A stretch of DNA of 64,000 bases, from assembly GCA_965219695.1 (NCBI GenBank), contig CBDCOJ010000032.1, positions 259,142-323,141 on the forward strand, in the 5' to 3' direction. Below are positions 31,501 through 45,591 of this stretch, in pieces. The notes beneath the pieces were generated by a model, which worked only from the letters and a program-made list of their open reading frames with translations, was not told where the DNA came from and did not search any database. Origin of the DNA: Candidatus Poribacteria bacterium. Lineage in GTDB: Bacteria > Poribacteria > WGA-4E > WGA-3G. Numbering within the stretch: position 1 is the first letter of the stretch; every line of letters begins with the position of its first letter. The position numbers were made by a program, and so were the translations under genes.

Positions 31501-31997
31501 CATTAGGAAGATTTGGAGAATTTGAAACTATAGCCGAAACTGAATATAAACTCACACAGCATCCAGGTTCAACACAACTCATTTTGACATACAATTCTCC
31601 TGAACTTGAACCTCGCGAATACCAGCTCCGACTCACAGCGAGTGACCTTGATGGAAATGAAGGGGAGAGTGAGATTACCTTTCAGGTGCATGGCACACTT
31701 CAATTGGTAGAACCTTTGAATTACCCGAACCCGTTTACACGGGATACTACAGTGACCTGTGAGTTGACAAAACCCGCTGAGTCACTCACTGTGAAAATAT
31801 ATACCGTTACCGGCAGACTCATTAGAGAATTAAAAACTGAGGCGCCCGCTGGATTTATAAAGCTTGAGTGGGATGGTAAAAATGATGATGGCAACGAGGT
31901 TGCTAATGGGGTTTATTTTGGAAAAATAATAGTTAAAAGTGATGATGAGGATGAAGATGACCAGACGCACATTTTGAAAATGATGAAATTGAAATAG
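25557..31997 (+). CDS. Large C25 (gingipain/PorU-like) cysteine peptidase with propeptide and C-terminal FlgD-Ig/CTD-like domain (start uncertain)
   Basis: PGHPKLPV propeptide motif; GADYLIL, YVVFLGDGTFD, LGRL, YAGHG (His), SCYNGYFD (Cys), YTLFGDP; C-terminal NYPNPF..IYTVTGRLIR..WDGKN..VANGVY. Confidence 0.85.
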   Translation: MLSNEHWNRRSVNLIVNVLSVTIQRFLKVSIRISVRAMCVCCLIFASVLLVFSVAAIAEVTQVTTADGITINFKLPQLHVAQVKPDTEFKSVEAAGVYHTVRYSECDWIREPGHPKLPVTRVLLAIPSDARLSNADISVNTGATQTRSGVKLLQVQDRKGVNLNTSSKLYPAVLARIEMDGSIRSQRVISLALHPVHYNAATRELRSYSGLTVFIPFNSQLKTRAPDTAFNSASASFNQTLSPFKRTFTQHIFNYSDYRQVFNVDLERAQAFGNRIGSLPSAPAAPGRTDKSIQTRYKLYIHETGIYKVTAASLRTDWGIDLIGVDPRKIRLTHGDQEIPIYVSGAVDGSFDAKDAIFFLAHSSTDPESPFPKNAYTLWNVYWLSIAAEGQHSVRVPQIEASPSDATAVQVPTFRSRVVFEEDHLSNNLEFVDPDTVAAGDKHGWFDALDFWYWDGIKNASDIGELRLDFPLYDVAKSFDPPQIQVVLQGGTPVMHEVLASINGVQIERTMWENQAQVTLSKSLRVWNNLKDAAQGETNVLSLTRIDDTFEEDTTRYPYHIYLNRFWVDYTRLFFAVNDQLRFGTPVKASQDEENKGVTHQFRIDAFFDPQISVFETDGNTLTAKLQGVDVTRRATDDNMRARLRALRSGDLRSVPNSTYTATFQIPDTRSTKFIAVSNTALRKPVQIETVPPSDLRNPLNGADYLILTHSRFREAAERLANWRSTTGGGGYRTKVVDITDVYNTFGDGKVHPVWIKDFLRYAYQNWAAPALSYVVFLGDGTFDFRGIDKKIYLEPPELSGYIPPHYITTDSFGRTSADHWYATVSGHDEFVDFYLGRLSVETEVEAKGIVDKIINYEAQPSNGAWRRRIISVADDEVSNSGDHIFKKSLNEIAKDHTRLGYETVEIYLEDIIDEVEANPEQFPGKLPRHVAKERIINALGQGSAIAQYAGHGGRIVWAHESIFDNASIDKIEETGNLPFMLVLSCYNGYFDKPGEPSMAEKLLRKERGGIIGMLSATRLTYGDGNEDLNRIIFDMLFQRDIRQIGPLSFDSKLEYLLTQGTSQLDIMLEYTLFGDPAMQIAMADYEILPIIETKTVKAGDKLKIASGFIQTARYDAETNKKVFTRNTNFDGELTVKVIFPGQQSVGVDKTGARREFYSGDVLVTKTLQVKRGSYPEVAIDVPENISPGDAHVEYYAENATEIAVGGDGFTVEVPKILDIKTQLVKTSTGEEVVDISVSISDDENAVASVVLEWRNPETHTWEKVPLEPVEIDTESESKARWWKLPAPLPAPTDGSAFRYDFEVTDTDGFVVQSDYYRFYPYKYPNLSVVSKRREKVGQISYKLSDPEDAARGRSLFADIEVVGSTNPNDDIVSDNDMISALGLSDVGIEVAFFSGNPDIDGNRIVDADANLLGKTQIKPDDWVVRNPLIQKSNAYAPDPLNTNPIATVAIPISLRSGIHDVFVYVDPIFSDSDADQHGTVRENYEQDNIGYRQITVSGNIIGEVPTRVASVDGGIHIVTPAGVVQEKSSFLNVLPIVSDAVDAESDYFIGGTGEARSTTSELPLPIIGSERKDNLKTGMLFPVTLPTHSSLLGYTLHLNQTESDDLWNSFKLQAPVAVELDFDFTALQQEVVRELFGSEMDVSDEMPAIDETLSAAVEVRARNIGAYLWLNTLANWTRLDSEIKRRPNGDIYTATRATQIQNDNASDGRIREVVISSEGAEIGHWIVLFETARTYRLLFIPEESDQGVPLDNLQLEEIESGIPITFFNNNFGTTSQNALSGFTIDFEDGETPFQFGDVLRFSVTQIEVPGEQSDEFYTSSFTSRNRGDGAVQYLELPPETTIPQDTWLIMFVSATEFQIEGKNTGVLTKNGEPMYGTVGKPFEHSDYGLNLLITQGPRPFTAGDRFLFETTTVGTIQAKTSYLGTVTCLRSEDTMPPDIQLTIGNQQHFTSGASVDAAPLIQATLTDARGIDYITRPVQLALGRFGEFETIAETEYKLTQHPGSTQLILTYNSPELEPREYQLRLTASDLDGNEGESEITFQVHGTLQLVEPLNYPNPFTRDTTVTCELTKPAESLTVKIYTVTGRLIRELKTEAPAGFIKLEWDGKNDDGNEVANGVYFGKIIVKSDDEDEDDQTHILKMMKLK

Positions 31998-32077
31998 CCA
32001 TCGGCAGTTGGCACTCAGCAGTCGGTTTTCTGATCAAACTTTTACGAAAACTGACCGCTGATAGTCTTTTAGAAATT

Positions 32078-33082
32078 ATGAAAAAATTTATTGTTATATG
32101 CTTCTTTTTTATACACATAATACTACCTGCTGCAGCTGAACGGACGTATACAGCAGATTTTCTCACATTCGGGACAGGTGCGCGTCCGTTAGGTATGGGC
32201 AACGCCTTTACTGCTATTGCTGATGAAGCGAGCACTACCTATTACAATCCTGCTGGTATTGCACAGTTGACGCATCACGAGTTTAATTTTATGCATGCCA
32301 CGCTTGCCGATCTTGCTGCGTATGATGTCGCAAGTTACATTTATCCATTTTCCCAAAAGACAACTTTCGGTATCAGTTGGTTACGTGTTGGCGTGGATGA
32401 TATACCGATTACAGGGATTCCCGTTACCAGTAGAGCTATCGGTCCTAACAACCGTCCTTATGTTCTTGGTACCTTTAGCAATACAAGTAATGCCTTTTTA
32501 CTCAGTGGGGCGCGGCATCTCACAACTTTACCGCGAGACATTTCTGTCCATCTCGGGGCCAGTCTCAAACTGATCTATATTGCTGCATATCGTAATACCA
32601 ATGCTATCGGTGGTGGAAGCGACCTCGGTATCCTTGCGAAAACGGACGAAGATAAATCAACTGCTTTTTCTTTAGGTATCGTTGCCAGTGATTTTTTTAC
32701 AACCAAACTCTATTGGAACACACCACCAGAAAACGAGGGTGAATCGCCTCACACAGAGACGCTATTGCCGCGCTTTAAAATAGGTGTCGCCTACCACCAG
32801 AAACTTGCTATTTTTAGCAGTAAACTCACCTTGGCAGCCGATGTTGATACCCGCAACGATTATGAATTTCATACCGGTGCTGAATACATTCTCTTTGACT
32901 TATTAGCACTCCGTTGTGGATTTGATGGACGAAACGGCACGTCTCGTGCGATGTACTTCACCGCAGGTGCTGGACTCCAACTCCGATTCGTTACCGGTGC
33001 TGCATTTCATGTCGACTATGCCTATCAGCGGCAACCGGATTTAGGTATCAGCAACCGTCTTTCCCTCCGCGTTAGATTTTAG
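32078..33082 (+). CDS. PorV/PorQ-family outer-membrane beta-barrel
   Basis: FLTFGTGARPLGMGNAFTAIAD..YYNPAG motif; terminal Phe; directly follows the PorU-like gene. Confidence 0.85.
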   Translation: MKKFIVICFFFIHIILPAAAERTYTADFLTFGTGARPLGMGNAFTAIADEASTTYYNPAGIAQLTHHEFNFMHATLADLAAYDVASYIYPFSQKTTFGISWLRVGVDDIPITGIPVTSRAIGPNNRPYVLGTFSNTSNAFLLSGARHLTTLPRDISVHLGASLKLIYIAAYRNTNAIGGGSDLGILAKTDEDKSTAFSLGIVASDFFTTKLYWNTPPENEGESPHTETLLPRFKIGVAYHQKLAIFSSKLTLAADVDTRNDYEFHTGAEYILFDLLALRCGFDGRNGTSRAMYFTAGAGLQLRFVTGAAFHVDYAYQRQPDLGISNRLSLRVRF

Positions 33083-33140: not shown

Positions 33141-33172
33141 AAGGTAGACAATCCGAAGGTTGTCTACCTTTT
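33141..33172. terminator. Bidirectional terminator
   Basis: AAGGTAGACAATC/GGTTGTCTACCTT stem between convergent genes. Confidence 0.75.
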
Positions 33173-33192: not shown

Positions 33193-33810
33193 CTACCAAG
33201 TCGTGATATCAGCTGCTTCACTAGGAACAGATGCACGTGAGGAAGCGCTATAGAATACACCTTCGAATCTTGTGCTAATACTACCGCTTGTGACGCAAAA
33301 TTCCAGCGAAGAAAGTGGATCAAACTCTTCTTCGAATGACCCATATGCATAGGCGGTATCCGAAAAAGCTTGGGTAAAAGTAGCATCTGATGGTCCGGGA
33401 TCAGAAGTCCGCTGATGGTCAGTAGAAACTAAAGTCAGTCCTTGCTGCACCCCATGGTAGAGGTATGCAGACATCCTGTACGGTCCTAAAGCGAATCCGA
33501 TGGGATTGTATCCGACTGTCGTTGAACAACTGACATAATGAGGTTCTTCGTAGTATTGAGTTGCGCCAGAACTACTCGAACTCCATAAAATCGCCTCATC
33601 ATATATGTCATAATATCCACTATTATCAAGTCCAGGACCATCAACGTCATAAATATCTTGGTCAACCCATTCATATTCAAACGGATCATCACCATCATGA
33701 TCTGTCATGCGATACTCGTTAGCATGATCACGATTATCTGAGGCTAAGGTGAATATAGTGGCCCCAATAGCGAGGATTACAATAATCAAAATTGCAAAAA
33801 AGCGTTTCAT
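33193..33810 (-). CDS. Exported acidic hypothetical protein
   Basis: Signal peptide; start overlaps the stop of the upstream gene (ATGA). Confidence 0.7.
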   Translation of the reverse strand: MKRFFAILIIVILAIGATIFTLASDNRDHANEYRMTDHDGDDPFEYEWVDQDIYDVDGPGLDNSGYYDIYDEAILWSSSSSGATQYYEEPHYVSCSTTVGYNPIGFALGPYRMSAYLYHGVQQGLTLVSTDHQRTSDPGPSDATFTQAFSDTAYAYGSFEEEFDPLSSLEFCVTSGSISTRFEGVFYSASSRASVPSEAADITTW

Positions 33811-34544
33811 TTTTTCTCCTTTTCTAAATTTAGATATGAATATGGCTCAATGCCATCATCAAAGGTATAGACATCAAATCCAGATAGGTCTGGTAATTTG
33901 CCGCGAATGAGGCGAATATTATCGTCGGGATGGCTTTTTATTCGTCCATACTGAACTTTGGACCCATCTGTATACTTTTTGTCATCGGTTTGGATATAGA
34001 CTCTACCGCGTACCGTTGGATAAACTAAGCCATTCTCCATCGTAGCCCCATCGGATTGAATGCCTTCTTCCCAGAGTTTAATACGTACTCTCGTCATCAA
34101 TTCGTAATTAGGGCTTGTGTGTGCTTCCCATGGGGGAATTGACAAACCCTCGGGTACTTTCGGATAGGGGCCAAATCCAAAGGGCGAGATAGGCGTATCT
34201 GTAACCCTTGCATTAGAAACTGCGTCTTCGGTTGGATCCGTGTCTTTGTTTTCCACAAGAATGTCGGTCTTTTCTGTTGTATCATCTGTGGAAACCGACA
34301 TATTTTCTACGGAGCCAACCGTTTGTGTCGTGCCTACCTGTTCGGTTGCTTTATCAGTGTCCCGCGCTTCTTTAGACTGTTTCCATTGCCGTATTTGTTC
34401 GGCGGTTTCAGCTGCTTGTTGTCGGTAGGACGCAAGACTGGACTGGTACCATAAATAGCACAGGTAACACAATCCCGCTAAAACGAGTAGGAATAAGATA
34501 CTTCCACCGAGTATCCATTTAAGATTACCTGTATCGCGAGACAT
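33807..34544 (-). CDS. Membrane-anchored protein with 'SPFGFG' domain (copy 1)
   Basis: N-terminal TM helix, low-complexity linker, and a C-domain shared with 40694-41905 and 44201-44962. Confidence 0.75.
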   Translation of the reverse strand: MSRDTGNLKWILGGSILFLLVLAGLCYLCYLWYQSSLASYRQQAAETAEQIRQWKQSKEARDTDKATEQVGTTQTVGSVENMSVSTDDTTEKTDILVENKDTDPTEDAVSNARVTDTPISPFGFGPYPKVPEGLSIPPWEAHTSPNYELMTRVRIKLWEEGIQSDGATMENGLVYPTVRGRVYIQTDDKKYTDGSKVQYGRIKSHPDDNIRLIRGKLPDLSGFDVYTFDDGIEPYSYLNLEKEKK

Positions 34545-34888
34545 CTATAACCTCCGAGTGTCATACGCGTAGAAGCAGCATGTGAATTGCTGTTGTGCCT
34601 ACAATTAAAGGTTTTGTTCAAGAAATGCGATTACAGCTTACGGAAAAACCTTTCAAGTGCCCGCCGCTGCGAGTGATTGTTAAAATAATCGGGACTTACA
34701 CATTATACTTCCGCATAAGCAGACTTAGTGCTTCTTGGCTCCCTGATTCCAAAAACCAGTGATGCAGTGCATCATCCTCGATTTCCTTCTCTGAAGAAAA
34801 ATTTTTACTGCCTTCATAAATAGTGACGTAAATTTGAGGAGAATTCCGACATAAAATTAATTTTAAACCATTAAGAACATATTAAATA

Positions 34889-35375
34889 GGGCTTACGCAG
34901 TTTGAGAGATTATTGAAGGATTTGAGAGTTGATGTTTCATGTAATCATCCAGTAACCCTTTTTTGAGATTGTAAATCGTTATACCAAATTTGCGGGCAAC
35001 ACGCTGCAGATAGCCCCGTACCTGAAAACAAGACGCAATATGATTTCTTTGAGCACGCAACGCACGACATTGACATTTACCAATACCGGTTACTTGTTTG
35101 ATCTCACGATGAAGTCGTTCAATCTTCCAACGCACTTGATATTCTTGGTTGTCGCATCCAAATCTGATTGAGATAAATCGTTTGTCACAATATATTCCGT
35201 GTGCCCGTTAGAGGACACTATCTGGAACAACTTTACTTGATACCCTTTTGGAACTTTTTGATGTGCACGCGTTTTCCTTGTCGTGTTTCTGTTTGGGGCG
35301 GAGATACATATCGGACTTGTTTATGCGGTTCCACGCCATCCGTATCATTCACAAGACGATTGCGTTTCAGCGAGT
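34889..35375 (-). pseudogene. IS701-family transposase remnant (5' truncated, frameshifted)
   Basis: LKRNRLV..VKLF..EYIVTND, frameshift, then RWKIERLHREIKQVTGI..CQCR..RAQRNHI; terminal GGGCTTACGCA. Confidence 0.8.
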
Positions 35376-35411
35376 ATATCCGCATAAATTAAAATGAAAG
35401 CCGATAGCCGT

Positions 35412-36587
35412 TTATGGATAAACAAACTTCCCTAATACTTTCCCACACGATGCCCCAGTCGCATTTGGCACATTACCAAAATTCCCATGCACTGCTTCGT
35501 TGGCGAGGATAGCGAAAGCAATTGCCTCTTTTGCATCACCCGAAATTCCCTTTTCCGTCACATCAACAACTGGAATAGGATCGAATGTTTCGGCAAGACT
35601 ACTCATTATGAGAGGGTTTTGCGCGCCGCCTCCGCTGACATATAATATATTCAGTGGCGATTTTGCCTCAACAAAATGCTTATAATATCGGACGATACTT
35701 TCAACTGTCAATGTGGTAAGTGTTGCAAGTCCATCGGACTCTGAAATTCCCTGCGTTTTAATCTGTTGTATGCAAGTATCAGCAAATATTGTTCCGAACA
35801 TCTCACGTCCTGTTGTTTTGGGTGGAGATAACTCAAAAAACGGATGCGTAAGCCACGTTTCTAAAAGGTTGGGGCAAACCGTTCCTTGACGTGCCAATTC
35901 TCCATTTTCATCAAACTGTTTTGCGTTATCAGTTATTTTTTGAACGCATGCGTCTAAAACCATATTGCCGGGACCTGTATCTGATGCCTGCACCGCTTCT
36001 ATACCACAACCTGCTGGTAGCACTGTCAGATTAGCAATTCCCCCGATATTCAACAGCCCAATAGTATGCGTCGAATGGTGAAATAGCAAAAAATCGGGAT
36101 AGGCGATTAACGGTGCGCCTTCTCCACCTGCTGCGACGTCTGCCACACGAAAATCAGCAATAGTTGGGATGCCTGTCTCATGTGCTATCACAGCAGGTTC
36201 GCCAATCTGTAGTGTTGCGGGGGTTGGGGCTGAAGGCATGTGGTGAATTGTTTGCCCATGTGAGCCAATCAAATCAATTTCTCTTGGTGCTATGCCTACC
36301 TTTTCCAGCACTGCCAAAGTGCTTTCCGCAAATAGCTTGCCCAATACGAAATTCATTGTGCAAATCTCATCAACTCGTGCTGTTTCAACGTTAAAAAGGT
36401 CAAAAATCCTATCTCTAATCTCAGGTTGATACGGAATTGTCTCAAACGCTATCAGGTCTATTTCCGTAGTCAGTCCTAATCCCATAATTTCAACGATGGC
36501 AACATCTACTCCATCCGCAGATGTTCCGCTCATTAATCCTATAATTTTCTTTTTTTCTTTCTGTAGCAGATCGTAAAATGGTTTCAT
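35412..36587 (-). CDS. anmK: Anhydro-N-acetylmuramic acid kinase
   Basis: GLMSGTSADGVD, GSHGQT, DFRVADVAAGGEGAPL, NIGGIAN, DTGPGN, KTTGRE, KEAIAFA. Confidence 0.95.
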   Translation of the reverse strand: MKPFYDLLQKEKKKIIGLMSGTSADGVDVAIVEIMGLGLTTEIDLIAFETIPYQPEIRDRIFDLFNVETARVDEICTMNFVLGKLFAESTLAVLEKVGIAPREIDLIGSHGQTIHHMPSAPTPATLQIGEPAVIAHETGIPTIADFRVADVAAGGEGAPLIAYPDFLLFHHSTHTIGLLNIGGIANLTVLPAGCGIEAVQASDTGPGNMVLDACVQKITDNAKQFDENGELARQGTVCPNLLETWLTHPFFELSPPKTTGREMFGTIFADTCIQQIKTQGISESDGLATLTTLTVESIVRYYKHFVEAKSPLNILYVSGGGAQNPLIMSSLAETFDPIPVVDVTEKGISGDAKEAIAFAILANEAVHGNFGNVPNATGASCGKVLGKFVYP

Positions 36588-36867
36588 GGTTTATAGTTAT
36601 CGGTTTTTAGTTAAGATGATGTATATTAACGTGAGTTCGGTATAAGCAACTTTCGGAATCGGCAGAATATGTCTCCTAAAAACTATTGTTATTTTGTATA
36701 CTAAAATAATACCGAATTTTTAGAGTCAAATATGACTGTTTTTATCATAATAAACCTGCCGATCCCGTCATAACAAAGGATCGTAGCACATTACAAAATC
36801 CTGTCATTTTCCGATTGACTCTAAAAACTCTAAAAATCTTTTTATTTTACGACTTGTGCTAGTTACG

Positions 36868-37031
36868 TGGTAGTTTTGTTGTTTTTCACAATTGTTCATA
36901 TTCTGTAGGAGCGATCTCCGAATCGCGACCCATTGTAGTCGGGAATCGGAGTTCCCTCCCGCTGAATGCCAAACGCGCATTCAGCGTTGATTCACAGATC
37001 AGGTGTAAAGTTAATTGTAAAATCCACTATA
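36868..37031. mobile_element. MITE with inverted REP pair and 34-bp hairpin insertion (36960-36993)
   Basis: GTAGGAGCGATCTCCGAATCGCGAC at 36905; right end TGTAAAGTTAATTGTAAAATCCACTATA. Confidence 0.7.
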
Positions 37032-37105
37032 AGAAATCAAAAATCTCATTTATCATGAGAGGTGCTTAGTATTGATTATGTTTCCTAATAACTGATAACC
37101 GAAAA

Positions 37106-38275
37106 CTAATACAATAGATAAGGTTCTCGTCTTGCGCGGAATTGTTCCTCGTCAATTGCCCACGTTTCAATAATTTCATCGCATGAAGTGCCTGTTAACA
37201 GTGCTTCTCGGAGCGTTGAACTGCCCGCTAATCTATCAAAATGCGTGACTCTAAATTCAAATTCATTGGGGTGTGCATCAATTAATATCCTTAACATCCA
37301 TACCGATACTTCAATCGGTGTTACCTGCTTTGGATCGGTAATATGTATTGCAACGCCGTGACACACTTCACCTTCATATTTGGAAAACTGCGGCGTAAAC
37401 ACAATTGGGCGGAAAAGCACTCCCGGAAATTCACGATCATTCAATCGAGTTGTCCACGTCTCCTTATCTATCCACGGTGCACCGATGTATTCAAAAGGTT
37501 TCGTTGTGCCGCGTCCTTCGCTCACATTCGTGCCTTCAAATAAACATGTTCCGGGATATAGCGTGGCAGCCTCAAGCGTGGGCATATTCGGTGAAGGTGG
37601 CACCCAAGGCAGTCCTGTTTCGTCGTACCACATTTCCCGATGCCACCCTTGCATCCGAGCTACCTTAAGTGGAAAGTTAAATCCCTGTTCCGCATGAAAA
37701 AGCCTCGCAACTTCACCAATTGTCATACCGTAGCGAACAGGTATCGGAAAAGGCCCCACTAAAGATGTGTAGTCAGATTCTAACATCGGTCCCTCTATGC
37801 CGGTCCCACCAATGGGATTTGGGCGATCCACAATAATGCATTCAACGCATTTACCCGACTCCATTGTCCATTCAAGTGCTTTCATCATCTCCAGCAACGT
37901 GCCAAGGTAGGTGTAATACCGCGCCCCTACATCCTGTATGTCGTAGATGATCACATCTAAAGTTTGGAGTGCTTCAGTCCATGCAAGCGGTTTTGTTCCA
38001 TATAGGCTATAGACTTGCAGTGTTTGTGCTTCTGTGTTAGTTCGCGCTTGATTTTGGTAATAGGTTGAATCTACTATCTTTACGCCATCTTGTACTGCAC
38101 CCCACAATCCATGTTCCGGTGAAAAAAGTGCTACCAAATTGAATTCTTTTAACAATTCAATTGTGTGCGTCAAGTTTTCATCAACGCCAGTGTGATTTGT
38201 TAGCAGACCGACAGATTTTCCGTCAAGCCATTCTTGTTTTTCTGTTAGTAGGTGGGTTATACCGAGTTTTATCAT
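37106..38275 (-). CDS. namZ: Exo-beta-N-acetylmuramidase NamZ (DUF1343)
   Basis: GLLTNHTG, FSPEHG, DIQDVGARYYTY, DRPNP, PPSPNMP, SEGRGTT. Confidence 0.9.
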   Translation of the reverse strand: MIKLGITHLLTEKQEWLDGKSVGLLTNHTGVDENLTHTIELLKEFNLVALFSPEHGLWGAVQDGVKIVDSTYYQNQARTNTEAQTLQVYSLYGTKPLAWTEALQTLDVIIYDIQDVGARYYTYLGTLLEMMKALEWTMESGKCVECIIVDRPNPIGGTGIEGPMLESDYTSLVGPFPIPVRYGMTIGEVARLFHAEQGFNFPLKVARMQGWHREMWYDETGLPWVPPSPNMPTLEAATLYPGTCLFEGTNVSEGRGTTKPFEYIGAPWIDKETWTTRLNDREFPGVLFRPIVFTPQFSKYEGEVCHGVAIHITDPKQVTPIEVSVWMLRILIDAHPNEFEFRVTHFDRLAGSSTLREALLTGTSCDEIIETWAIDEEQFRARREPYLLY

Positions 38276-39333
38276 CCAAAAACTATCCTGTGGAATTCAT
38301 TCCGACATTCAATGATGCCTGTGCGTTGTGCATCCGGATGAACCCGATTTGTCAGCAAGATCGCAGCTATACCTTTTTCAAGATCAATCCGTATTGAAGT
38401 GCCAGTGAAACCGGTGTGATACATTGAACCATCAGTAAGTATATGCCACCCAATACTCCGTTGTTCGGAGGCATCATGTGGTGTTTGTGGTGTCTCCAAT
38501 GCCTTTACGCTATCAGGAGATAAAAACGTGCCGCCATCTTGGAGTAACATTTGGCAAAAAGTGATGAGGTCTCTCACATTGGAAAAAAGTCCCGCATTAC
38601 CAGAAACACCACCAAGGAAATTCGCATTTTCATCGTGGACCTCCCCGACAATAACACCTTCGCGCCAGTTATGACCGCGATAATAGTGACCGTGCTGCCC
38701 TGACTTTACCATTCTGCGTTCGAAACTATTTGAATCTTCTGTTGCTGCGCAGTTATCGTGCATCTGTGACGGTGGATTGTATAAGGTGCGGTTCATGCCG
38801 AGTGGTTTGAAGATAGCGTTATGTGCTAAACTGTCTAACGCTTCTCCTGTGATGTTAGAGATAAGTTTTCCCATAAGAATATATCCTAAGCAGCTATAGT
38901 TAACCTTTTCCCCAGGCGCAGCTTCAAGTGACATGTTCCCCAAATGTTCTATTACATCTTCAGGTGAATCTGTTTCAATGTAGAGCGGTTTCCAAGCGGG
39001 TAATCCAGAGGTATGCGCGAGCAGGTGTTGACACGTAATGCGTGGTTGTTTGAATGTGGGGAGATATGTCTGTGCGGGTTCATCTAACGACAACTTGCCA
39101 GATGCAACTAACTGCATGGTAAGTGTTCCGATGACGATAGGTTTTGTCAAGGAAGCGAGATCAAACAACGTATCATGAAACATTGGCGCATGCTTCGGTG
39201 TTATGATGCGATGTCCAAATGCTGCGTGATAGATAACCTTGTCTTTTTCAAGAATTGCGACAACGGCACCAGGGAATATCTTTTCGGTGATTTTTTGTTC
39301 AATGAGTGTGGAAATTGCGTTAGCAGTCATCAC
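38272..39333 (-). CDS. Serine hydrolase, beta-lactamase class C/AmiE-like
   Basis: SLTK (SxxK), LLAHTSGL, YSC, GEVHDEN, HTGFTG. Confidence 0.9.
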   Translation of the reverse strand: MMTANAISTLIEQKITEKIFPGAVVAILEKDKVIYHAAFGHRIITPKHAPMFHDTLFDLASLTKPIVIGTLTMQLVASGKLSLDEPAQTYLPTFKQPRITCQHLLAHTSGLPAWKPLYIETDSPEDVIEHLGNMSLEAAPGEKVNYSCLGYILMGKLISNITGEALDSLAHNAIFKPLGMNRTLYNPPSQMHDNCAATEDSNSFERRMVKSGQHGHYYRGHNWREGVIVGEVHDENANFLGGVSGNAGLFSNVRDLITFCQMLLQDGGTFLSPDSVKALETPQTPHDASEQRSIGWHILTDGSMYHTGFTGTSIRIDLEKGIAAILLTNRVHPDAQRTGIIECRNEFHRIVFG

Positions 39334-39360
39334 TCACAAGTGTATCCTATTTTTCTAAAT

Positions 39361-39539
39361 GGTGTCAATAGATTTGTTGTGAGGATTGGTTACAGAATTT
39401 GTAGGAGCGATCTCCGAATAGCGACCAAAGCCATTCGTAGTCGGGAATCGGAGTTCCCACCCGCCAAATGCCATAGGCGCATTTGGCGTTGATCCCCTCG
39501 CTGGTGAAAAGTGTCCAAATAATTTTAAAATCTACCATA
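39361..39539. mobile_element. Composite REP/MITE cluster with hairpin insertion (39462-39495)
   Basis: REP at 39401, inverted REP at 39440, CGCCAAATGCCATAGGCGCATTTGGCGTTGAT, right end TCTACCATA. Confidence 0.65.
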
Positions 39540-39550
39540 TATAGCACGCG

Positions 39551-40608
39551 TTAGGGTGAAATACCACTGATGAGTGTTCGGAGATGTCGTCCGGTTTCCA
39601 CATCCCACAGCTCGACTCCACCTAATATATTGTCACTTGCGATAGTTTTTCCGTCAGGACTGAACGCTACCATTCTTCTGACAAGATTCCGCTTATTTTT
39701 AATTAGCCGCTTATTTTCTCTTGTGAGCGTTCGGGGGAGTTGTCCGGTCTTCACATCCCACAGACGAATAGCACTGTAAACATTGGCACTTGCGATAGTC
39801 TTTCCGTCCGGACTAAACGCAATGCTCCAGACATTTGTCATTTGCTCTGTGGCGAGGGTTCGGAGTGGTTCACCTGTATCCACCTCCCATAGACGCACAG
39901 TTTTGGCATTACTTCCACTTGCGATAATCCTTCCATCTGGGCTGAACGCAACGTCCCAGACGGTTGCCGTATGTCCTGTGAGAGTTTGGAGGAGTTCTCC
40001 TGTCCGTGCATCCCACAAGCGCACAGTTTTATCACGACCGCCGCTTACGATAGTCTTTTCGTCCGGACTAAACGCAATGCTCCATATTTTTTCTGTATGT
40101 CCTGTGAATGTTCGGATAATTTTTCCTGTGTCCGCATCCAACAGATAGAGTGTTTTGTCCCAACTCCTATTTATGATTGTCTTGCCATCCGGACTAAACG
40201 CAACGCTCCTTGTCCAATTCGTAGTACCTGTAAATTTTCGGAGGTTTTGCCTGTGTGTGCATCCCACAAACGAATGGTATTGTCCTTCGTGCCACTACCT
40301 ATGAGTATATTTCCATCTGGACTAAATGCAATGGTAGCGGCAGAATCTGTAAACCCTATGAATTGCACAAGTGCATCACCTGTCTGTGCATCATAGAGCC
40401 AAATGCCCTTGGTATTTGTCATCGCGAGTCGTGTGCCATCGGGAGAATACTTTATATCATTGATAGAGCCTTTCCCAGTGTGCACTTTCACGCCATCAGG
40501 GAAATCCCCTTGCTGTGGATCGTCCTGCAGATCCTTGGCAATGCTACTGTGTGTAAATGTGAGTAGTATAAACAGGACTGTCAAAATTGAAAACAATTTG
40601 TTTTTCAT
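39551..40608 (-). pseudogene. Exported WD40-repeat protein split by a 1-nt frameshift near 40246
   Basis: Two overlapping ORFs (40171-40608, 39551-40267) join in the middle of a repeat (..LWDAHTGK | LRKFTGTTNW..); intact paralog at 42026-43135. Confidence 0.75.
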
Positions 40609-40693
40609 GGGTTAGTTTTCCTTCGCGAATTAGTTAACTCGGTGCGATTAATTTTGAAACCAGGTGGGACGCAATGCTGCTTTAGGTATACCG

Positions 40694-41905
40694 TTATCGC
40701 TGACGGAATTTATTTAATTCCAGAAGCGTTTTGTTTTCGCCTTTTTCTATTGATTCATCGTCAAACCTCGGAAAACCGAGGAATTTGTAAGGGTCTATAC
40801 CCCCATCTGGATACTCATAGACTTTTATGCCATCTGGGTACACATAAACCTTTACACCTGATACCTCAATTTCATCAGGTATTATGTCTGTGCGTTCAAA
40901 CATATGGTGAATAAGGTATAAAGAGTCCCACTTTTTACCGGTACCTGGGGCACCCATTATTAGCGAGGCATACCGTCGCCCCGCAAACTCTGGATCGTCA
41001 TCTTCAGCGTTTTTCCATTGTACGTAAAGGACACCAGGAATAGTCGGATAAATGAGACCATTACTATCAAATCCAGCACCTGTCGTCTGTGTCCCCTGTT
41101 TCCATAACTTAATACGGACTCGAACTAACAACTCATGTTCTGCTGTGGCATTATCCCAAGTCTGTACCACTTCCCTAAACGGAAAATCGGCGGGAACTTT
41201 AGGGTAAGTACCGAATCCAAAAGGAGAGACATTGAATTCAATTAGTATTTTTTTTGCTTCTTTAACGTATGATTCTGCACTCTCAATTTTCCCATATTTT
41301 TTGACCAATAATTGTAGGGTACGTATTGCCTCATCATTATCTTTAAGGTATTTTGATTGTATTCGCGCTTTACTGGCGAGGGCTTGTGGAGCGCGTTTAC
41401 TCTGTGGGTTGCGGTTCGCAAAATTATCAAAGACTTGGACAGCTTGTTCAAATTTTTGTCCTTTCTCATAACTTTTTGCCAACATCAGTTGTGAGTCATG
41501 ACTCAATTCCAGATGCGGAAATTGAGTCATGATAGTCTCAAATTGGGTTTGCGCTGTGTCATAATCTTTTTGACGATAGGCGTGCATCCCGAGACGGTAG
41601 TGTGCTTCTGCAGCTTCATCGCTTGCGGGTGCTTCAGTAACGATTGCTTCATAAGTTTTTATCCCTTGTTCGGGTTGATTCATATCCTCAATGTAGAGTT
41701 CACCCATAGCAAGTTGTGCCACGCGCGCGTCAGCAGTGCAAGGTTTTGCATCAACTATGCTTTGATAAACTTCTATCGCCCCACAATAATCCTTTGCTTC
41801 AACTAATTTTTTTGCACTGCCCATTACACCACCAGATAAACAACCGATTTGCACTACTGTTATAAGAACAAAAGTAGTAAACAGACAGAAGTGGTAAAAT
41901 TTCAT
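40694..41905 (-). CDS. TPR (CpoB/BamD-like) lipoprotein fused to 'SPFGFG' domain (copy 2)
   Basis: Lipobox QIGC; AAEAHYRLG-type TPRs; C-domain nearly identical in DNA to that of 44201-44962. Confidence 0.75.
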   Translation of the reverse strand: MKFYHFCLFTTFVLITVVQIGCLSGGVMGSAKKLVEAKDYCGAIEVYQSIVDAKPCTADARVAQLAMGELYIEDMNQPEQGIKTYEAIVTEAPASDEAAEAHYRLGMHAYRQKDYDTAQTQFETIMTQFPHLELSHDSQLMLAKSYEKGQKFEQAVQVFDNFANRNPQSKRAPQALASKARIQSKYLKDNDEAIRTLQLLVKKYGKIESAESYVKEAKKILIEFNVSPFGFGTYPKVPADFPFREVVQTWDNATAEHELLVRVRIKLWKQGTQTTGAGFDSNGLIYPTIPGVLYVQWKNAEDDDPEFAGRRYASLIMGAPGTGKKWDSLYLIHHMFERTDIIPDEIEVSGVKVYVYPDGIKVYEYPDGGIDPYKFLGFPRFDDESIEKGENKTLLELNKFRQR

Positions 41906-42025
41906 GATTCTTCTCTGTACTAATATCAAATTAATGGAATTTAACTTGTTTTCGGATGGGTAGATGGGATTTCTTAATCGTATCTACGGACTGAATCAGC
42001 ACCAGTTTCGGTTAGGTGCCCAAAC

Positions 42026-43135
42026 CTATTTGATGTGCTGTCCAGACTTCGTAGAACGTACGTATTGAAAACCTCTTATGAGTGTACGTAGGTGTTGCCC
42101 TGTCTTCACATCCCATAGATTGACTTCATTGTTACCACAAGATGCGATCGTACTGCCATCCGGACTGAATACCACCTTGAATTTGCCCACAGTACCATTA
42201 TATCGATCTCTGAATTCTCGCAGTATTTGTCCGGTGTGCACATCCCACATGGTGATAACAAAACCGTCATAACTTGCAATTGTCGATCCATCACGACTAA
42301 ACGCTACGCTCTTGATAAAAGGGTGTCTATTTTTATATTTAAGTGTTAGGAGAAGTTGTCCTGTGTTCACATTCCACAGACGGACGATATGGTCCCAACT
42401 CCCACTTGCGATTATCTTTCCATCCGGACTAAACGCCACGCTATTGACATAGTGCTCATGCCCCGATAGTGTGTGTAGGAGTTTGCCTGTGTCCGCATTC
42501 CACAGACGGAGGGTTTTGTCATAACTCCCCGCAGCGATTATTCTACCGTCCGGACTAAACACTATTTGCCTGATTTGTTTCGTATGCCCCGATAGTGTGT
42601 GTAAGAGTTTACCTGTATCCACATCCCATAGACGGATGGTACTGTCCACTACTTCATTATGCCTACTTATAATCGTGTTGCCATCTGGACTATAAGCCAC
42701 GCCCCATATCAGTAATTTCTTATCACCTTTGCGTATTCGCCCCTTTAGTGTTCGTAGGAGTTGTCCCGTGTTTGTATCCAATAGACGAATAGTGCCGTTC
42801 GGACTAGCACTTGCAAGTATATTTCTGTCCGGACAAAACGCTATGTTCCAAGCTCTATCCGTGTTCCCTGTGACTTTGACAGGTTCTTCAATTTTCTGTG
42901 TATCATAGAGCAAAATACCAAAATCCCCTGCTACCGCCAGGCGTGTACTATCGGGGGAATATTCTATATCGTAGACGTTGGCTTTCTCAGGTAGAATTTT
43001 CTCTGGCCGGACTTTCACGCCATCAGGGAAATCCCCTTGCTGTGGATCGTCCTGCAGATCCTTGGCAATGCTACTGTGTGTAAATGTGAGTAGTATAAAC
43101 AGGACTGTCAAAATTGAAAACAATCTGCGTTTCAT
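42026..43135 (-). CDS. Exported WD40-repeat protein
   Basis: Signal peptide; GH..V.FSPDG..IASGS.D..RLW repeats. Confidence 0.9.
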   Translation of the reverse strand: MKRRLFSILTVLFILLTFTHSSIAKDLQDDPQQGDFPDGVKVRPEKILPEKANVYDIEYSPDSTRLAVAGDFGILLYDTQKIEEPVKVTGNTDRAWNIAFCPDRNILASASPNGTIRLLDTNTGQLLRTLKGRIRKGDKKLLIWGVAYSPDGNTIISRHNEVVDSTIRLWDVDTGKLLHTLSGHTKQIRQIVFSPDGRIIAAGSYDKTLRLWNADTGKLLHTLSGHEHYVNSVAFSPDGKIIASGSWDHIVRLWNVNTGQLLLTLKYKNRHPFIKSVAFSRDGSTIASYDGFVITMWDVHTGQILREFRDRYNGTVGKFKVVFSPDGSTIASCGNNEVNLWDVKTGQHLRTLIRGFQYVRSTKSGQHIK

Positions 43136-43244
43136 CGGTTAGTACTCTTTGTGCTGTTCTAAACACTTATCTGTGAAGAAATATCTGGACTATAGTATAC
43201 ACGTCTGGATGATTACATGTCAAGTTTTTCTAATAAATTTGGGT

Positions 43245-43340
43245 TATAGTAAATTTGAGAGTTACTTGGACACATTATGTTGGCGAGGTTAGGCCCTCGC
43301 CAAACAGGGACGAAAATGTCTATTCTTATAATTCATTATA
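43245..43340. mobile_element. Degenerate MITE (TATAGT...ATTATA) with REP-like GGCGAGG hairpin
   Basis: Ends similar to the 13665 and 20196 elements. Confidence 0.5.
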
Positions 43341-43347
43341 AATAGCT

Positions 43348-43393
43348 AAAAACAATATACAGGTATCCGTGAGGATACCTGTATATTGTTTTT
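43348..43393 (-). terminator. Rho-independent terminator
   Basis: 21-bp perfect stem with a 4-nt loop, just past the stop at 43417. Confidence 0.85.
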
Positions 43394-43416
43394 CATAATG
43401 AAAATGTGACATATTT

Positions 43417-44190
43417 TTAATCTGACGATACTTCTACGGTATAGCTTTCCTGGTATACAGATTGATCTGACCGGTAAATATACGCAGTAATTGTATACGT
43501 GCCGGTGTACATCGTACCACTGGGGAACGTGTAAGAGAATGTTGCCTCTGTTGTCGTTCCGTCACCTGTGTCAGTTTCCATCTGTGTTCCAAGTCCTGTA
43601 TCACTGGGACTCGCTACATACCAATAGACATCAGAATAAGGAGCATCTGTCATAAGACATGCTTCGTGTGTATCTCCTGGTGCAGCGGTATACAAACCAT
43701 TAACAGATTCTAATCCAACCGAATCACACGGACAATCACAAACGGGTGGATCAGGATCAAGAGGAGGAGGTGGCATATCCGGTACATAATACGTAGCTTC
43801 CGCAGAAATGGTTCCAGCAAATAATGAATTCCCCTCAGATTTTGCATAAGCTGTGGCTGAGTTCTCTTGGTAGGGAGCTCTCAATTTTCTCCTAAGAGAA
43901 GTAGAACCATGGATATTATCCTTAGTTTCATTAATAGTAAGGTCTGGTCTGTTATTTACTGTTAGAGTTACAGTCAATTTAGCACCGCTTGCATAACCTT
44001 CAGTTGAAGCCTCAGCAGTCAAATTAACATGTAATCTGTCATTATTAATTCCGCCAGAACGCCAGCCGTTTGCTATCGCAATATAATCACCATGTTCTAC
44101 TGTAAGCGATGCAAAAATATTGCTAACTACACCAACGAAGAGGATTGCGCATGAAAAGGAAATTAGTAAAAGAACACGATTAAGTTTCAT
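43417..44190 (-). CDS. Exported hypothetical protein with Pro/Cys linker and C-terminal Ig-like domain
   Basis: Signal peptide; PPPPLDPDPPVCDCPCD linker. Confidence 0.7.
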   Translation of the reverse strand: MKLNRVLLLISFSCAILFVGVVSNIFASLTVEHGDYIAIANGWRSGGINNDRLHVNLTAEASTEGYASGAKLTVTLTVNNRPDLTINETKDNIHGSTSLRRKLRAPYQENSATAYAKSEGNSLFAGTISAEATYYVPDMPPPPLDPDPPVCDCPCDSVGLESVNGLYTAAPGDTHEACLMTDAPYSDVYWYVASPSDTGLGTQMETDTGDGTTTEATFSYTFPSGTMYTGTYTITAYIYRSDQSVYQESYTVEVSSD

Positions 44191-44200
44191 TATATTCTCC

Positions 44201-44962
44201 TTACCTCGGTAAATCGAGGAATTTGTAGGGGTCTATACCCCCATCTGGGTACTCATAAACCATTATATCTGATGCCTCATTATCATTATCTACTTCTGTG
44301 GGTTCAAACATACTGTCAATAAGGTATGAAGATTCCCATTTTTTAGCAGTAGTTGGGTCACCTATTATTAGCGAGGCATATCTTCGACCTACAAAATTTG
44401 GGTCTCCTTCTCTTTGTCCAATGGTATGCCATTTCACGTAAATCACACCAGGAATAGATGGATAAATGAGACCATTATCATCAAACATCGCACCTGTAGT
44501 ATGTGCGCCCTGTTTCCATAACTTAATACGGGCCCGGACTAATAATTCCAACTCTGGCGTGGCATTATCCCAAAGTTGTTCCTGAAACGGAAAATCAGCG
44601 GGAACTTCAGGATACGGACCAAATCCAAAGGGAGAGGTAGGCACGTCCGTAGTTAAGTCTATGTTTTTTTCAAGTGTGTCGGTTTTTTGTATTGTCTCCT
44701 CTGTGGGGACCGACATATCTTCCACAGATTCAGACCTATTTTTTACAGATTCAAAGGATTCTGTCCGTGGCACGTCTGTTTGGTTGGGTTTCTGTGCCTT
44801 TTGCGACATATCCTCTTGAAAGACAATACCATCGTTAGCCGATAACTGTTGTTGAAATGATGCTATATCGTGCTGATACCAGAAATGGCACAGCACCGCG
44901 AAAACAATCAGAAGACCGAAGCCACCGATACACCATTTATTTGTTAAGATGTCGCGAATCAT
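44201..44962 (-). CDS. Membrane-anchored protein with 'SPFGFG' domain (copy 3)
   Basis: N-terminal TM helix; homologous to 33807-34544; start overlaps the sigma factor stop. Confidence 0.75.
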   Translation of the reverse strand: MIRDILTNKWCIGGFGLLIVFAVLCHFWYQHDIASFQQQLSANDGIVFQEDMSQKAQKPNQTDVPRTESFESVKNRSESVEDMSVPTEETIQKTDTLEKNIDLTTDVPTSPFGFGPYPEVPADFPFQEQLWDNATPELELLVRARIKLWKQGAHTTGAMFDDNGLIYPSIPGVIYVKWHTIGQREGDPNFVGRRYASLIIGDPTTAKKWESSYLIDSMFEPTEVDNDNEASDIMVYEYPDGGIDPYKFLDLPR

Positions 44963-45591
44963 ATTATCCCTCTGTTTACTAAATCTGCATGTACCTCTGG
45001 ATATTCCGTTTCAAGCCAGGCTTTGAGTTTCTTTCTTGCCTTATATATCCGAACGTTAACAGCACCCGCTTTGATTCCCAACATCTCGGCAATCTCCGTG
45101 TTTTTCATTCCATCAAGGTACAACCAAAACGCTTCCTTTTCGGATGGCGGAAGTTGTTCCATCAAACTGAAAACGATTTCCATATATTCTTTGTCAATCG
45201 CTATTCGTTCTGGTCTGAGGCTTAAAGAAACACATAACTCCCCTGACTCCACCAGATTGTTAATGTTCCCAAATGCTTCTTGGAACTCGCGTCTTTCGTC
45301 CGATTTTTCAAGCTGTCTTGCCATAGTCCCGACAGCAACACGAACAAGCCACCTCGGAAAACCTTCGGGATTTCGAAGATCATCTATCTGGACCATTGCT
45401 TCAAAGAACGTTTCGTGAACAAGATCATCCAAATCTTCAGGATTTCTGATTCCTTTTATGTAGAAAAATCCGCGAAGTCTACTACCGTGTCGCAAGTAGA
45501 GGATATCCCATGCTGCTTTGATGCCAACTTGGTATGCTCGGACGAGTTCCGAATCACTCCAAGTGGAATCAGGCTCTCCCCGATTTTGCAT
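44959..45591 (-). CDS. ECF-type RNA polymerase sigma factor (start MQNRGE)
   Basis: Region 2 (DDLVHETF, FPRWLVRVA) and region 4 (LPPSEKEAF..EIAEMLGI..V..RIYKARKKL). Confidence 0.9.
   Translation of the reverse strand: MQNRGEPDSTWSDSELVRAYQVGIKAAWDILYLRHGSRLRGFFYIKGIRNPEDLDDLVHETFFEAMVQIDDLRNPEGFPRWLVRVAVGTMARQLEKSDERREFQEAFGNINNLVESGELCVSLSLRPERIAIDKEYMEIVFSLMEQLPPSEKEAFWLYLDGMKNTEIAEMLGIKAGAVNVRIYKARKKLKAWLETEYPEVHADLVNRGII

Follow-up and report, generated by a model that had tools for sequence, protein, structure and literature searches.

What is the function of a conserved domain, matching no known family, that recurs beside dissimilar exported proteins? This question is raised by a 64,000-nucleotide stretch of DNA from a Candidatus Poribacteria bacterium (GenBank assembly GCA_965219695.1, contig CBDCOJ010000032.1, positions 259,142 to 323,141 of the forward strand), which we call the window. 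Three window proteins, A, B and C, carry the domain. The downstream neighbours of A and C are designated pA and pC, and later letters (D to N) denote other paralogues in the same genome. Poribacteria are uncultivated, dominant symbionts of sponges, and little has been learned about the contact between their envelope and the host. The evidence assembled here describes a family of membrane-anchored proteins, paired in their genes with small exported proteins. Our preferred reading, to which we give about an even chance, is that the anchored protein tethers a matched, diversifying exported protein to the membrane.

An original prediction, made from the letters of the window, had described three proteins sharing an unrecognised domain, and all of its open reading frames (ORFs) lie where it placed them, on the minus strand. 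Alignment of A, B and C over their C-terminal 130-180 amino acids (aa) yielded 38 invariant columns, including the motifs FGFG.YP.VP, EL..R.RIKLW..G, NGL.YP and D.GI.PY..L. Within the domain, A is 39% and 36% identical to the other two, and C is 67% identical to B. The domain is indeed common to the three proteins, and it went unrecognised in curated collections as well. Anchor C matched no Pfam or NCBIfam family at E≤0.1, A gave only far sub-threshold rows in the same scan, and the matches of B were confined to its tetratricopeptide repeat (TPR) half. A profile of the 14 paralogue domains of this genome found nothing at E≤1 among 177,635 distinct PDB sequences.

In the full-length AlphaFold2 model of C, the predicted local distance difference test score (pLDDT) of the domain is mostly above 90. 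Because the long N-terminal helix swamped the structure matches of this model, the domain was refolded alone from a 38-row alignment (pLDDT 84.8, predicted template modelling score 0.77), and its elements follow one another as in the full-length model (helix, four strands, helices, strand, helix). Structure prediction followed by a Foldseek search, the check that the original prediction had proposed, returned no characterised fold, the best E against PDB being 0.51. The best ESM Atlas match, 0.85 to adaptor-complex mu-homology clusters (recognition 1396, 152 shared features), fell under the tool's own bar and was dropped as chance. Since the PDB sequence, Foldseek and ESM Atlas searches gave no qualifying match, we treat the fold as unmatched. 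The predicted domain has about 140 aa, and a missing match to a predicted model does not prove novelty.

The family is large. A profile built from the three window sequences found 11 more paralogues (E 3.9e-36 to 1.7e-9), making 14 in the genome; B is the TPR form, and the other 13 are built like A and C. With C alone as query, 191 database proteins were matched, under no names other than "hypothetical protein", "tetratricopeptide repeat protein" and, for the TPR form, "TolA-binding protein". One of them, P0053 (403 aa, E 1.3e-54), lies on the window's own 905,818-base contig and by its size should be copy B. A profile of the domain matched 560 of 1.84 billion representative proteins at E≤0.001; among the 150 of these matches that were listed, nearly all have about 240-270 aa with the domain at the C-terminus. 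The family is present in 35 of 41 genomes of relatives and, within the genus, in all 24, with 2-31 matches per genome. Across the phylum it was found in 113 of 151 genomes: 82/99, 9/10 and 21/26 in the taxonomic families f1, f2 and f3, and 0/15 among the genomes searched from families f4 to f9. Copy number swings widely even inside one genus, and in genus g9 a match is present in 40 of 57 genomes. Among the genomes searched, the family is found only in Poribacteria, in three taxonomic families. A literature search with little coverage of subscription journals, in which papers on Poribacteria sigma factors were represented by their titles and the beginnings of their abstracts, returned no publication on the anchor-partner family, and the two-gene unit appears to be undescribed so far.

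In the usual family member, which we call an anchor, a cytoplasmic tail of about 9 aa leads into a single membrane helix, and an acidic, disordered stretch of about 60 aa connects this helix to the C-terminal domain. The AlphaFold2 model of C (61 sequences) has a helix at residues 9-45, corresponding to the membrane helix and its continuation, followed by an acidic linker of about 60 aa in which residues 44-103 have a pLDDT below 50. The reading frame of C can be extended upstream by at most 16 codons (269 instead of 253). The consensus of the anchor helix is W..GG...LI...A.C.LWYQ. The membrane anchor and the linker motif SVE[ND]MSV.T..T..KTD, both ascribed to A and C in the original prediction, are present in the two sequences. 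Across the anchors this short motif is semi-conserved in the form [SP][VA]E..T.T[TA]EKP, within the acidic "disordered" linker (residues ~75-100 of C, alignment columns ~75-95), and it could serve as a processing, modification or docking site.

The genes for A and C are tightly joined to those that follow. A and pA overlap in an ATGA, and C and pC are separated by a 10-nucleotide (nt) spacer containing GGAG, in agreement with the coupling to signal-peptide genes that had been proposed. Because of these junctions and of the terminator-like hairpins after pC and pA, each window unit looks like a short operon. Pairing was scored throughout by a fixed rule: a same-strand ORF of at least 60 aa, starting between -30 and +60 nt from the stop of the anchor, and bearing near its N-terminus K or R and then a 15-residue stretch of mean hydropathy of at least 2.0. 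In this genome 10 of the 14 copies have a partner, as do 30 of 55 copies at 40 loci in the genus and 13 of 27 copies at 16 loci in families f2 and f3; these loci were the best-scoring listed matches and not a random draw. By the same rule, 307 of 3262 open frames of at least 220 codons in this genome (9.4%) have such a neighbour. Misses fall on tandem copies (F before G), TPR forms and fragments, while H and L have no close neighbour; about six further copies in the genus fail the rule and look signal-bearing by eye. Partners are enriched over this control, and the notion of a conserved anchor with a variable exported partner as a repeated module extends from the window to the genome and to three families. 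One database protein, P0264 (702 aa), joins TPR, the orphan domain and WD40 in a single chain, a natural fusion that independently connects the domain with the exported product of the neighbouring gene. P0264 and P0263 were the only proteins above 443 aa to be found, in a search that is weak evidence for the absence of other long fused forms.

The partners vary. They are mostly unrelated to each other by BLAST, and pA has no BLAST match to any other partner, including pC. Links appear at the level of modules: the C-terminal parts of pC and pN are 54% identical, pE and pM 51%, and the N-terminal parts of pG and pN 43%. Partner sub-families travel with anchor sub-families. Ten partners were scanned and none rose above a curated Pfam cut-off. 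For pC, 42 homologues were found, for which the only names shown were "hypothetical protein [Candidatus Poribacteria bacterium]"; alignment of 25 of them revealed that the signal peptide and the C-terminal domain are conserved, whereas the head between them, which is followed by a proline-rich linker, is variable. Weak Pfam matches to Ig-like families came from two pC homologues: one matched GldM_2nd and CopC, the other CARDB, below its cut-off. When 3 anchors and 7 partners were submitted to PADLOC and PHROGs, the former gave no defence match and the latter TPR-type matches on B only.

Does the anchor domain touch its partner? The co-folding that the original prediction had suggested was run for C and pC, using the 149-aa C domain (38-row alignment) and pC residues 28-257 (25-row alignment). 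The pair scored 0.72, compared with 0.00 for the best of three controls, which supports a contact. Among solved complexes 58 of 80 reach that mark, and among mismatched pairs 2 of 110, a calibration that is only approximate here because the alignments were our own. Agreement between runs was at least 78% of contacts, and the partner had a pLDDT of at least 83. On the domain side the predicted interface comprises one face of helix 31-41 and strands 52-58 and 88-99; on the partner side it comprises residues 90-106 in the variable head, together with 60-72 and 239-245. The closest pairs run antiparallel, domain residues 52-54 with partner residues 96-94 and domain residues 93-97 with partner residues 102-98, and from this contact list we infer a predicted pairing of strands between the chains. 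Domain interface residues 88-99, 102 and 106 lie partly in or beside a stretch that is inserted in C and B relative to A.

The anchor genes are uniform at the 5' end and diverge at the 3' end. D and E are 84% identical over their first 55 residues and 36% identical in the domain; five tandem copies in genome G021 are 80-95% identical over the first 55 residues and 37-50% in the domain. The difference extends to synonymous choice. Among identical residues, D and E use identical codons at 38 of 43 positions in the first 55 codons compared with 12 of 45 in the domain, and for two of the G021 copies the figures are 46/49 and 18/50. Just upstream, the untranslated leaders of several copies, also from different genomes, are almost the same. 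This pattern points to recombination or gene conversion over the promoter-leader-anchor part, or to selection on the nucleotide sequence itself; under either cause, the 3' part, domain and partner, is read as the diversifying part. A leader common to many copies, in this genome (e.g. window 34545-34800 for A) and at loci L015-L054, runs AACAGAC, hairpin, CACAACAA, GGAGGT, ATG. Its hairpin has 6-9 bp, differs in sequence between copies and precedes the ribosome-binding site by 10-20 nt. The folding signal of 63 leaders was modest (mean z -0.78, 13 below -2), and an Rfam search of 12 paralogue loci returned nothing relevant, the only rows being a miRNA model (34 bits against 119) and GcvB (21.6 against 42). 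By eye, near-consensus TTGACA-N17-TATAAT promoters lie 120-170 nt upstream of D, E, I, J, K, L and N.

These observations are brought together in the tether reading as follows. The first gene would encode a single-pass inner-membrane protein with its N-terminus inside as a tail of about 9 aa, and its acidic leash of about 60 flexible residues would lie in the periplasm and end in the 140-aa domain. The second gene, translationally coupled to the first, would supply a small Sec-exported protein of variable sequence. The domain would capture its own partner by edge-strand pairing, so that the partner is held at the membrane, and domain and partner would diversify together while the 5' leader and the membrane anchor stay uniform. 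In one lineage, that of the C cassette of the window, the unit stands behind the gene of an extracytoplasmic function (ECF) sigma factor, with WD40 genes and a copy in which a TPR module replaces the anchor. Of these elements, the family with its architecture, the enriched gene pairing and the 5' homogenisation were observed; the fold and the contact are predictions; stable tethering is an inference, and any biological role, including the surface display or host interaction raised in the original prediction, would be a guess. A broader idea, which we offer as speculation and consider unlikely, is that the cassettes are a diversifying repertoire of membrane-tethered recognition units on a new fold, with matched heads, 3' divergence and a 5' end homogenised by recombination. 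Copy number, from 0 to about 31, would then follow the targets to be recognised (sponge host, matrix, phages or neighbours), and ECF sigma factors would switch on some of the subsets.

Several observations weigh against the tether. No partner passing the rule was found at 4 of 14 copies in this genome and at 25 of 55 in the genus; signal peptides were called by the hydropathy rule and not by a trained predictor; and the enrichment figures overstate their support because related genomes are not independent. The co-fold covers one pair, C and pC, and its three controls include no non-cognate member of the family. The most conserved motif, SPxGFGPYP, lies outside the predicted interface, and the main conserved function of the domain may therefore lie elsewhere; the motif may be structural or may serve a second, common function. 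Moreover, a predicted interface of this kind cannot separate a stable tether from transient binding.

This last point opens the way to the alternative that survives best, in which the anchor domain is a transient helper, a periplasmic chaperone or hand-over adaptor, and the partner ends elsewhere, for example in surface display. The tight gene coupling and the predicted strand-pairing interface are equally expected of such a helper, and strand pairing is the way in which several periplasmic chaperones hold their clients. A chaperone, however, needs neither a 60-aa leash nor a membrane anchor, and no secretion-system genes were noted beside the 14 loci in the ORF lists, which were not subjected to a dedicated scan. 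We regard the helper as unlikely.

A plainer alternative is that there is no specific interaction at all: the two genes would be transcribed together and encode envelope proteins of a lineage-specific family that evolves fast, and the co-folding result would be a false positive. The two mismatched pairs that reached the mark in the calibration, and the roughness of that calibration, leave room for such an error. Against it, the pairing persists in three families of the phylum, the fusion protein P0264 exists, and all three co-fold controls scored 0.00, and we judge this explanation to be quite unlikely.

The remaining evidence concerns the ECF sigma factor gene in front of C, which the original prediction had taken as the sign of a module under ECF control. 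The window sigma protein matches PF08281 (57.8 bits, residues 142-189), PF04542 (35.1 bits, residues 31-98) and TIGR02937 (80.9 bits, cut-off 42.9); it has regions 2 and 4, with no region 3 family among the listed Pfam matches, and classifies as an ECF sigma factor. Its gene overlaps that of C in an ATGA, as translational coupling would have it. We searched for sigma-like ORFs ending at most 1 kb upstream on the same strand, using a profile made from the sigma proteins of this genome, and found one at 9 of 68 loci compared with 40 of 3210 control ORFs (1.2%); by these counts the link is about tenfold enriched, yet a minority feature. Within this genome a sigma gene overlaps 1 of the 14 copies, and seven other copies have the sigma-70-like promoters described above, so that ECF control did not hold up as a general rule.

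The nine sigma-linked loci are window C, F/G, four in the genus (L044, L045, L048 and L050) and three in f3 and f2 (L060, L062 and L069). The sigma gene stands directly before the anchor at C and its orthologues in L044, L045, L048 and L050, but not at the other 12 copies of this genome, apart from F/G, which lie 381 nt downstream of a gene for a 1086-aa sigma fusion (C12 93034-96294). These sigma genes are not one orthologous set, the window sigma being 26% identical to that of f3. Those upstream of C-type anchors in L044, L045 and L048 encode 240-259 aa, compared with 210 aa in the window, and on reading their sequences they seem to end in a second helix-turn-helix repeat of the region-4 kind. 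In two f3 genomes (L060 1783-3429 and L062 1773-3438), the gene for an ECF sigma factor of 180 aa stands at the head of an array of 3-5 anchor-partner units. Between the sigma gene and the first anchor of these arrays is an ORF of 90-94 aa with the motif HxxxCxxC and no membrane helix, ending 27 nt before the anchor in L060; the zf-HC2 scores of the two ORFs, 22.7 and 21.8 bits, lie on either side of the cut-off of 22.2. Our reading, which the lack of orthology among the sigma genes fits, is that the cassettes were repeatedly placed under ECF sigma genes, as targets rather than as sensors. Sigma-like genes are numerous in such genomes: in the genome of the window, G000, a sigma profile finds 69 ORFs that have at least 100 aa, and 39 of these, the 1086-aa fusion before F/G among them, exceed 500 aa and consist of sigma regions with very large C-terminal parts.

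The opposite direction of control must also be weighed. The anchor could be the membrane or sensor half of a split anti-sigma system, and the partner a periplasmic ligand or modulator, which together control the neighbouring ECF sigma factor. The enrichment of sigma genes in at least four different contexts favours this arrangement, and so does the order in f3, where a sigma gene, a short HxxxCxxC ORF near the zf-HC2 cut-off and an anchor resemble an anti-sigma factor cut in two. Nevertheless, 59 of the 68 loci are without such a sigma gene, and the non-orthologous sigma genes, with a second region-4-like repeat in some of them, fit targets and not sensors. The seven copies with consensus-like sigma-70 promoters speak against it as well. 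The cytoplasmic part is too short for an anti-sigma domain, as the original prediction had noted: the helix of C begins at residue 9, no anti-sigma family was matched, and zf-HC2 is absent from the 120 listed C homologues of 139-443 aa (of the 191). Control of the sigma factor by the anchor therefore seems very unlikely to us, although the anchors of the f3 arrangement may have a split anti-sigma role. Least probable of all is a toxin-immunity pair, in which the cell would secrete the variable protein as a toxin or bacteriocin and the tethered domain would be its matched periplasmic immunity protein: tandem divergent pairs, co-diversification and recombination-prone 5' ends do resemble polymorphic toxin loci, but the partners are without Pfam matches above a curated cut-off (ten) and without PHROGs or PADLOC matches (seven each, the three anchors likewise giving nothing in PADLOC), one partner group ends in an Ig-like domain, and, unlike known immunity proteins, all anchors carry one homologous domain despite partners that are unrelated by BLAST.

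Features of the window discussed in the text (positions are those of the 64,000-nt window).
Feature	Position	Strand	Remarks
ECF-type sigma factor	44959..45591	-	210 aa from ATG, frame to 45678 from GTG; stop overlaps C start (ATGA)
Anchor C, 253 aa	44201..44962	-	~9-aa tail, membrane helix, acidic disordered linker, orphan domain (44204-44650)
Partner pC, 257 aa	43417..44190	-	Signal peptide, variable head, proline-rich linker, conserved Ig-like C-terminal domain
Terminator-like hairpin, 20-bp stem	43348..43393	-	Closes the sigma-C-pC unit
WD40 propeller protein with signal peptide, 369 aa	42026..43135	-	Pfam WD40 185 bits; in conserved larger cassette
Copy B, 403 aa from ATG (411 aa from upstream TTG)	40694..41905	-	N-terminal signal, YbgF/BamD-like TPR, orphan domain (40697-41242)
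Second WD40 gene, two overlapping ORFs (40171-40608, 145 aa; 39551-40267, 238 aa)	39551..40608	-	From ORF list and Pfam
Anchor A, 245 aa	33807..34544	-	C-like architecture; orphan domain at 33810-34202
Partner pA, 205 aa	33193..33810	-	Signal-peptide protein; ATGA overlap with A; 0 Pfam families
Terminator-like hairpin, 11-bp stem	33141..33170	-	3' of pA

Around C the genes form a larger cassette, in the order sigma, C, pC, terminator, WD40, B (TPR and domain), WD40. The same order recurs in L044 and L048 and is amplified in L050. The TPR half of B matches TPR_6 (69.5 bits, cut-off 26.3) and YfiO (40.8 bits, cut-off 25); it is not filed as YbgF itself because the equivalog TIGR02795 scores 88.9 bits, just below its cut-off of 90.1. 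The original prediction had described this copy as fused to a TPR lipoprotein and flanked by WD40 genes. The TPR fusion and the flanking genes are borne out by Pfam, and the lipoprotein part is tentative, the cleavage-site cysteine of B standing in the context VVQIGC, which presumably does not fit the strict lipobox pattern. In the second WD40 gene, the first 42 residues nearly repeat the N-terminus of the 369-aa WD40 protein, and this split gene is probably a frameshifted duplicate or an assembly error.

The second fusion, P0263, joins the orphan domain to the C-terminal ~285 aa of a large membrane protein family without a Pfam match. This C-terminal part is 44-51% identical to three ORFs of the window's own genome (C30 250615-252809, C18 10539-12929 and C28 363205-365724), and one of the three, itself split, lies just downstream of the K-pK unit. 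An oligosaccharyltransferase-like character was guessed from the sequence both for P0263, in its C-terminal half, and for the large membrane protein that follows the K cassette; Pfam gave no such match, and the guess was dropped. Near anchor A, an 80-aa ORF (34893-35135, minus strand), which we take to resemble a transposase fragment, lies about 350 nt upstream. By the ORF list, genes for a 2146-aa secreted protein and then a 334-aa signal-peptide protein (25557-33082, plus strand) converge with the A-pA unit.

The family thus offers, for a phylum of host-associated bacteria, a large set of proteins (up to about 31 copies per genome) confined to Poribacteria among the genomes searched, with no curated-family match, a confidently predicted domain for which no solved structure was matched, a conserved partner gene and a predicted interface that can be tested. 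If the tether is real, it would be a new module for protein-protein recognition, and its genes would be a case of concerted evolution at one end and diversification at the other. The recurrent, non-orthologous ECF sigma neighbours could also help to show which genes are controlled by the very many sigma factors of these genomes.

How does the unit compare with known systems? In E. coli, the sigmaE-RseA-RseB system consists of a sigma gene, a gene for a single-pass inner-membrane protein and one for a signal-peptide protein that binds its periplasmic part. The window unit of sigma, C and pC has the same order and a predicted contact of the same kind, but C has a tail of about 9 aa with no anti-sigma domain, neither C nor pC matches a Pfam or NCBIfam family, and most loci have no sigma gene (59/68). 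The partners also differ from RseB and MucB, since the MucB_RseB domain was not encountered and none of the ten partners exceeded a Pfam cut-off. ECF anti-sigma factors have a cytoplasmic domain of about 80-90 aa, often with HxxxCxxC, before the membrane helix; C, with its helix from residue 9 and no zf-HC2 or RskA match, does not share this anti-sigma domain. YbgF/CpoB and BamD resemble the N-terminal half of B only, through the TPR_6 and YfiO matches above the Pfam cut-offs, whereas B has the orphan C-terminal domain and sits among WD40 genes outside any tol-pal or bam context. TonB and TolA offer a parallel to the architecture of the anchors. The anchor helix consensus does not show the motif of the SHLS type. 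Like these proteins, an anchor begins with a brief cytoplasmic segment, crosses the membrane once through a conserved helix and continues in an extended flexible linker up to a small alpha/beta domain at the C-terminus, for which strand pairing with a partner is predicted.

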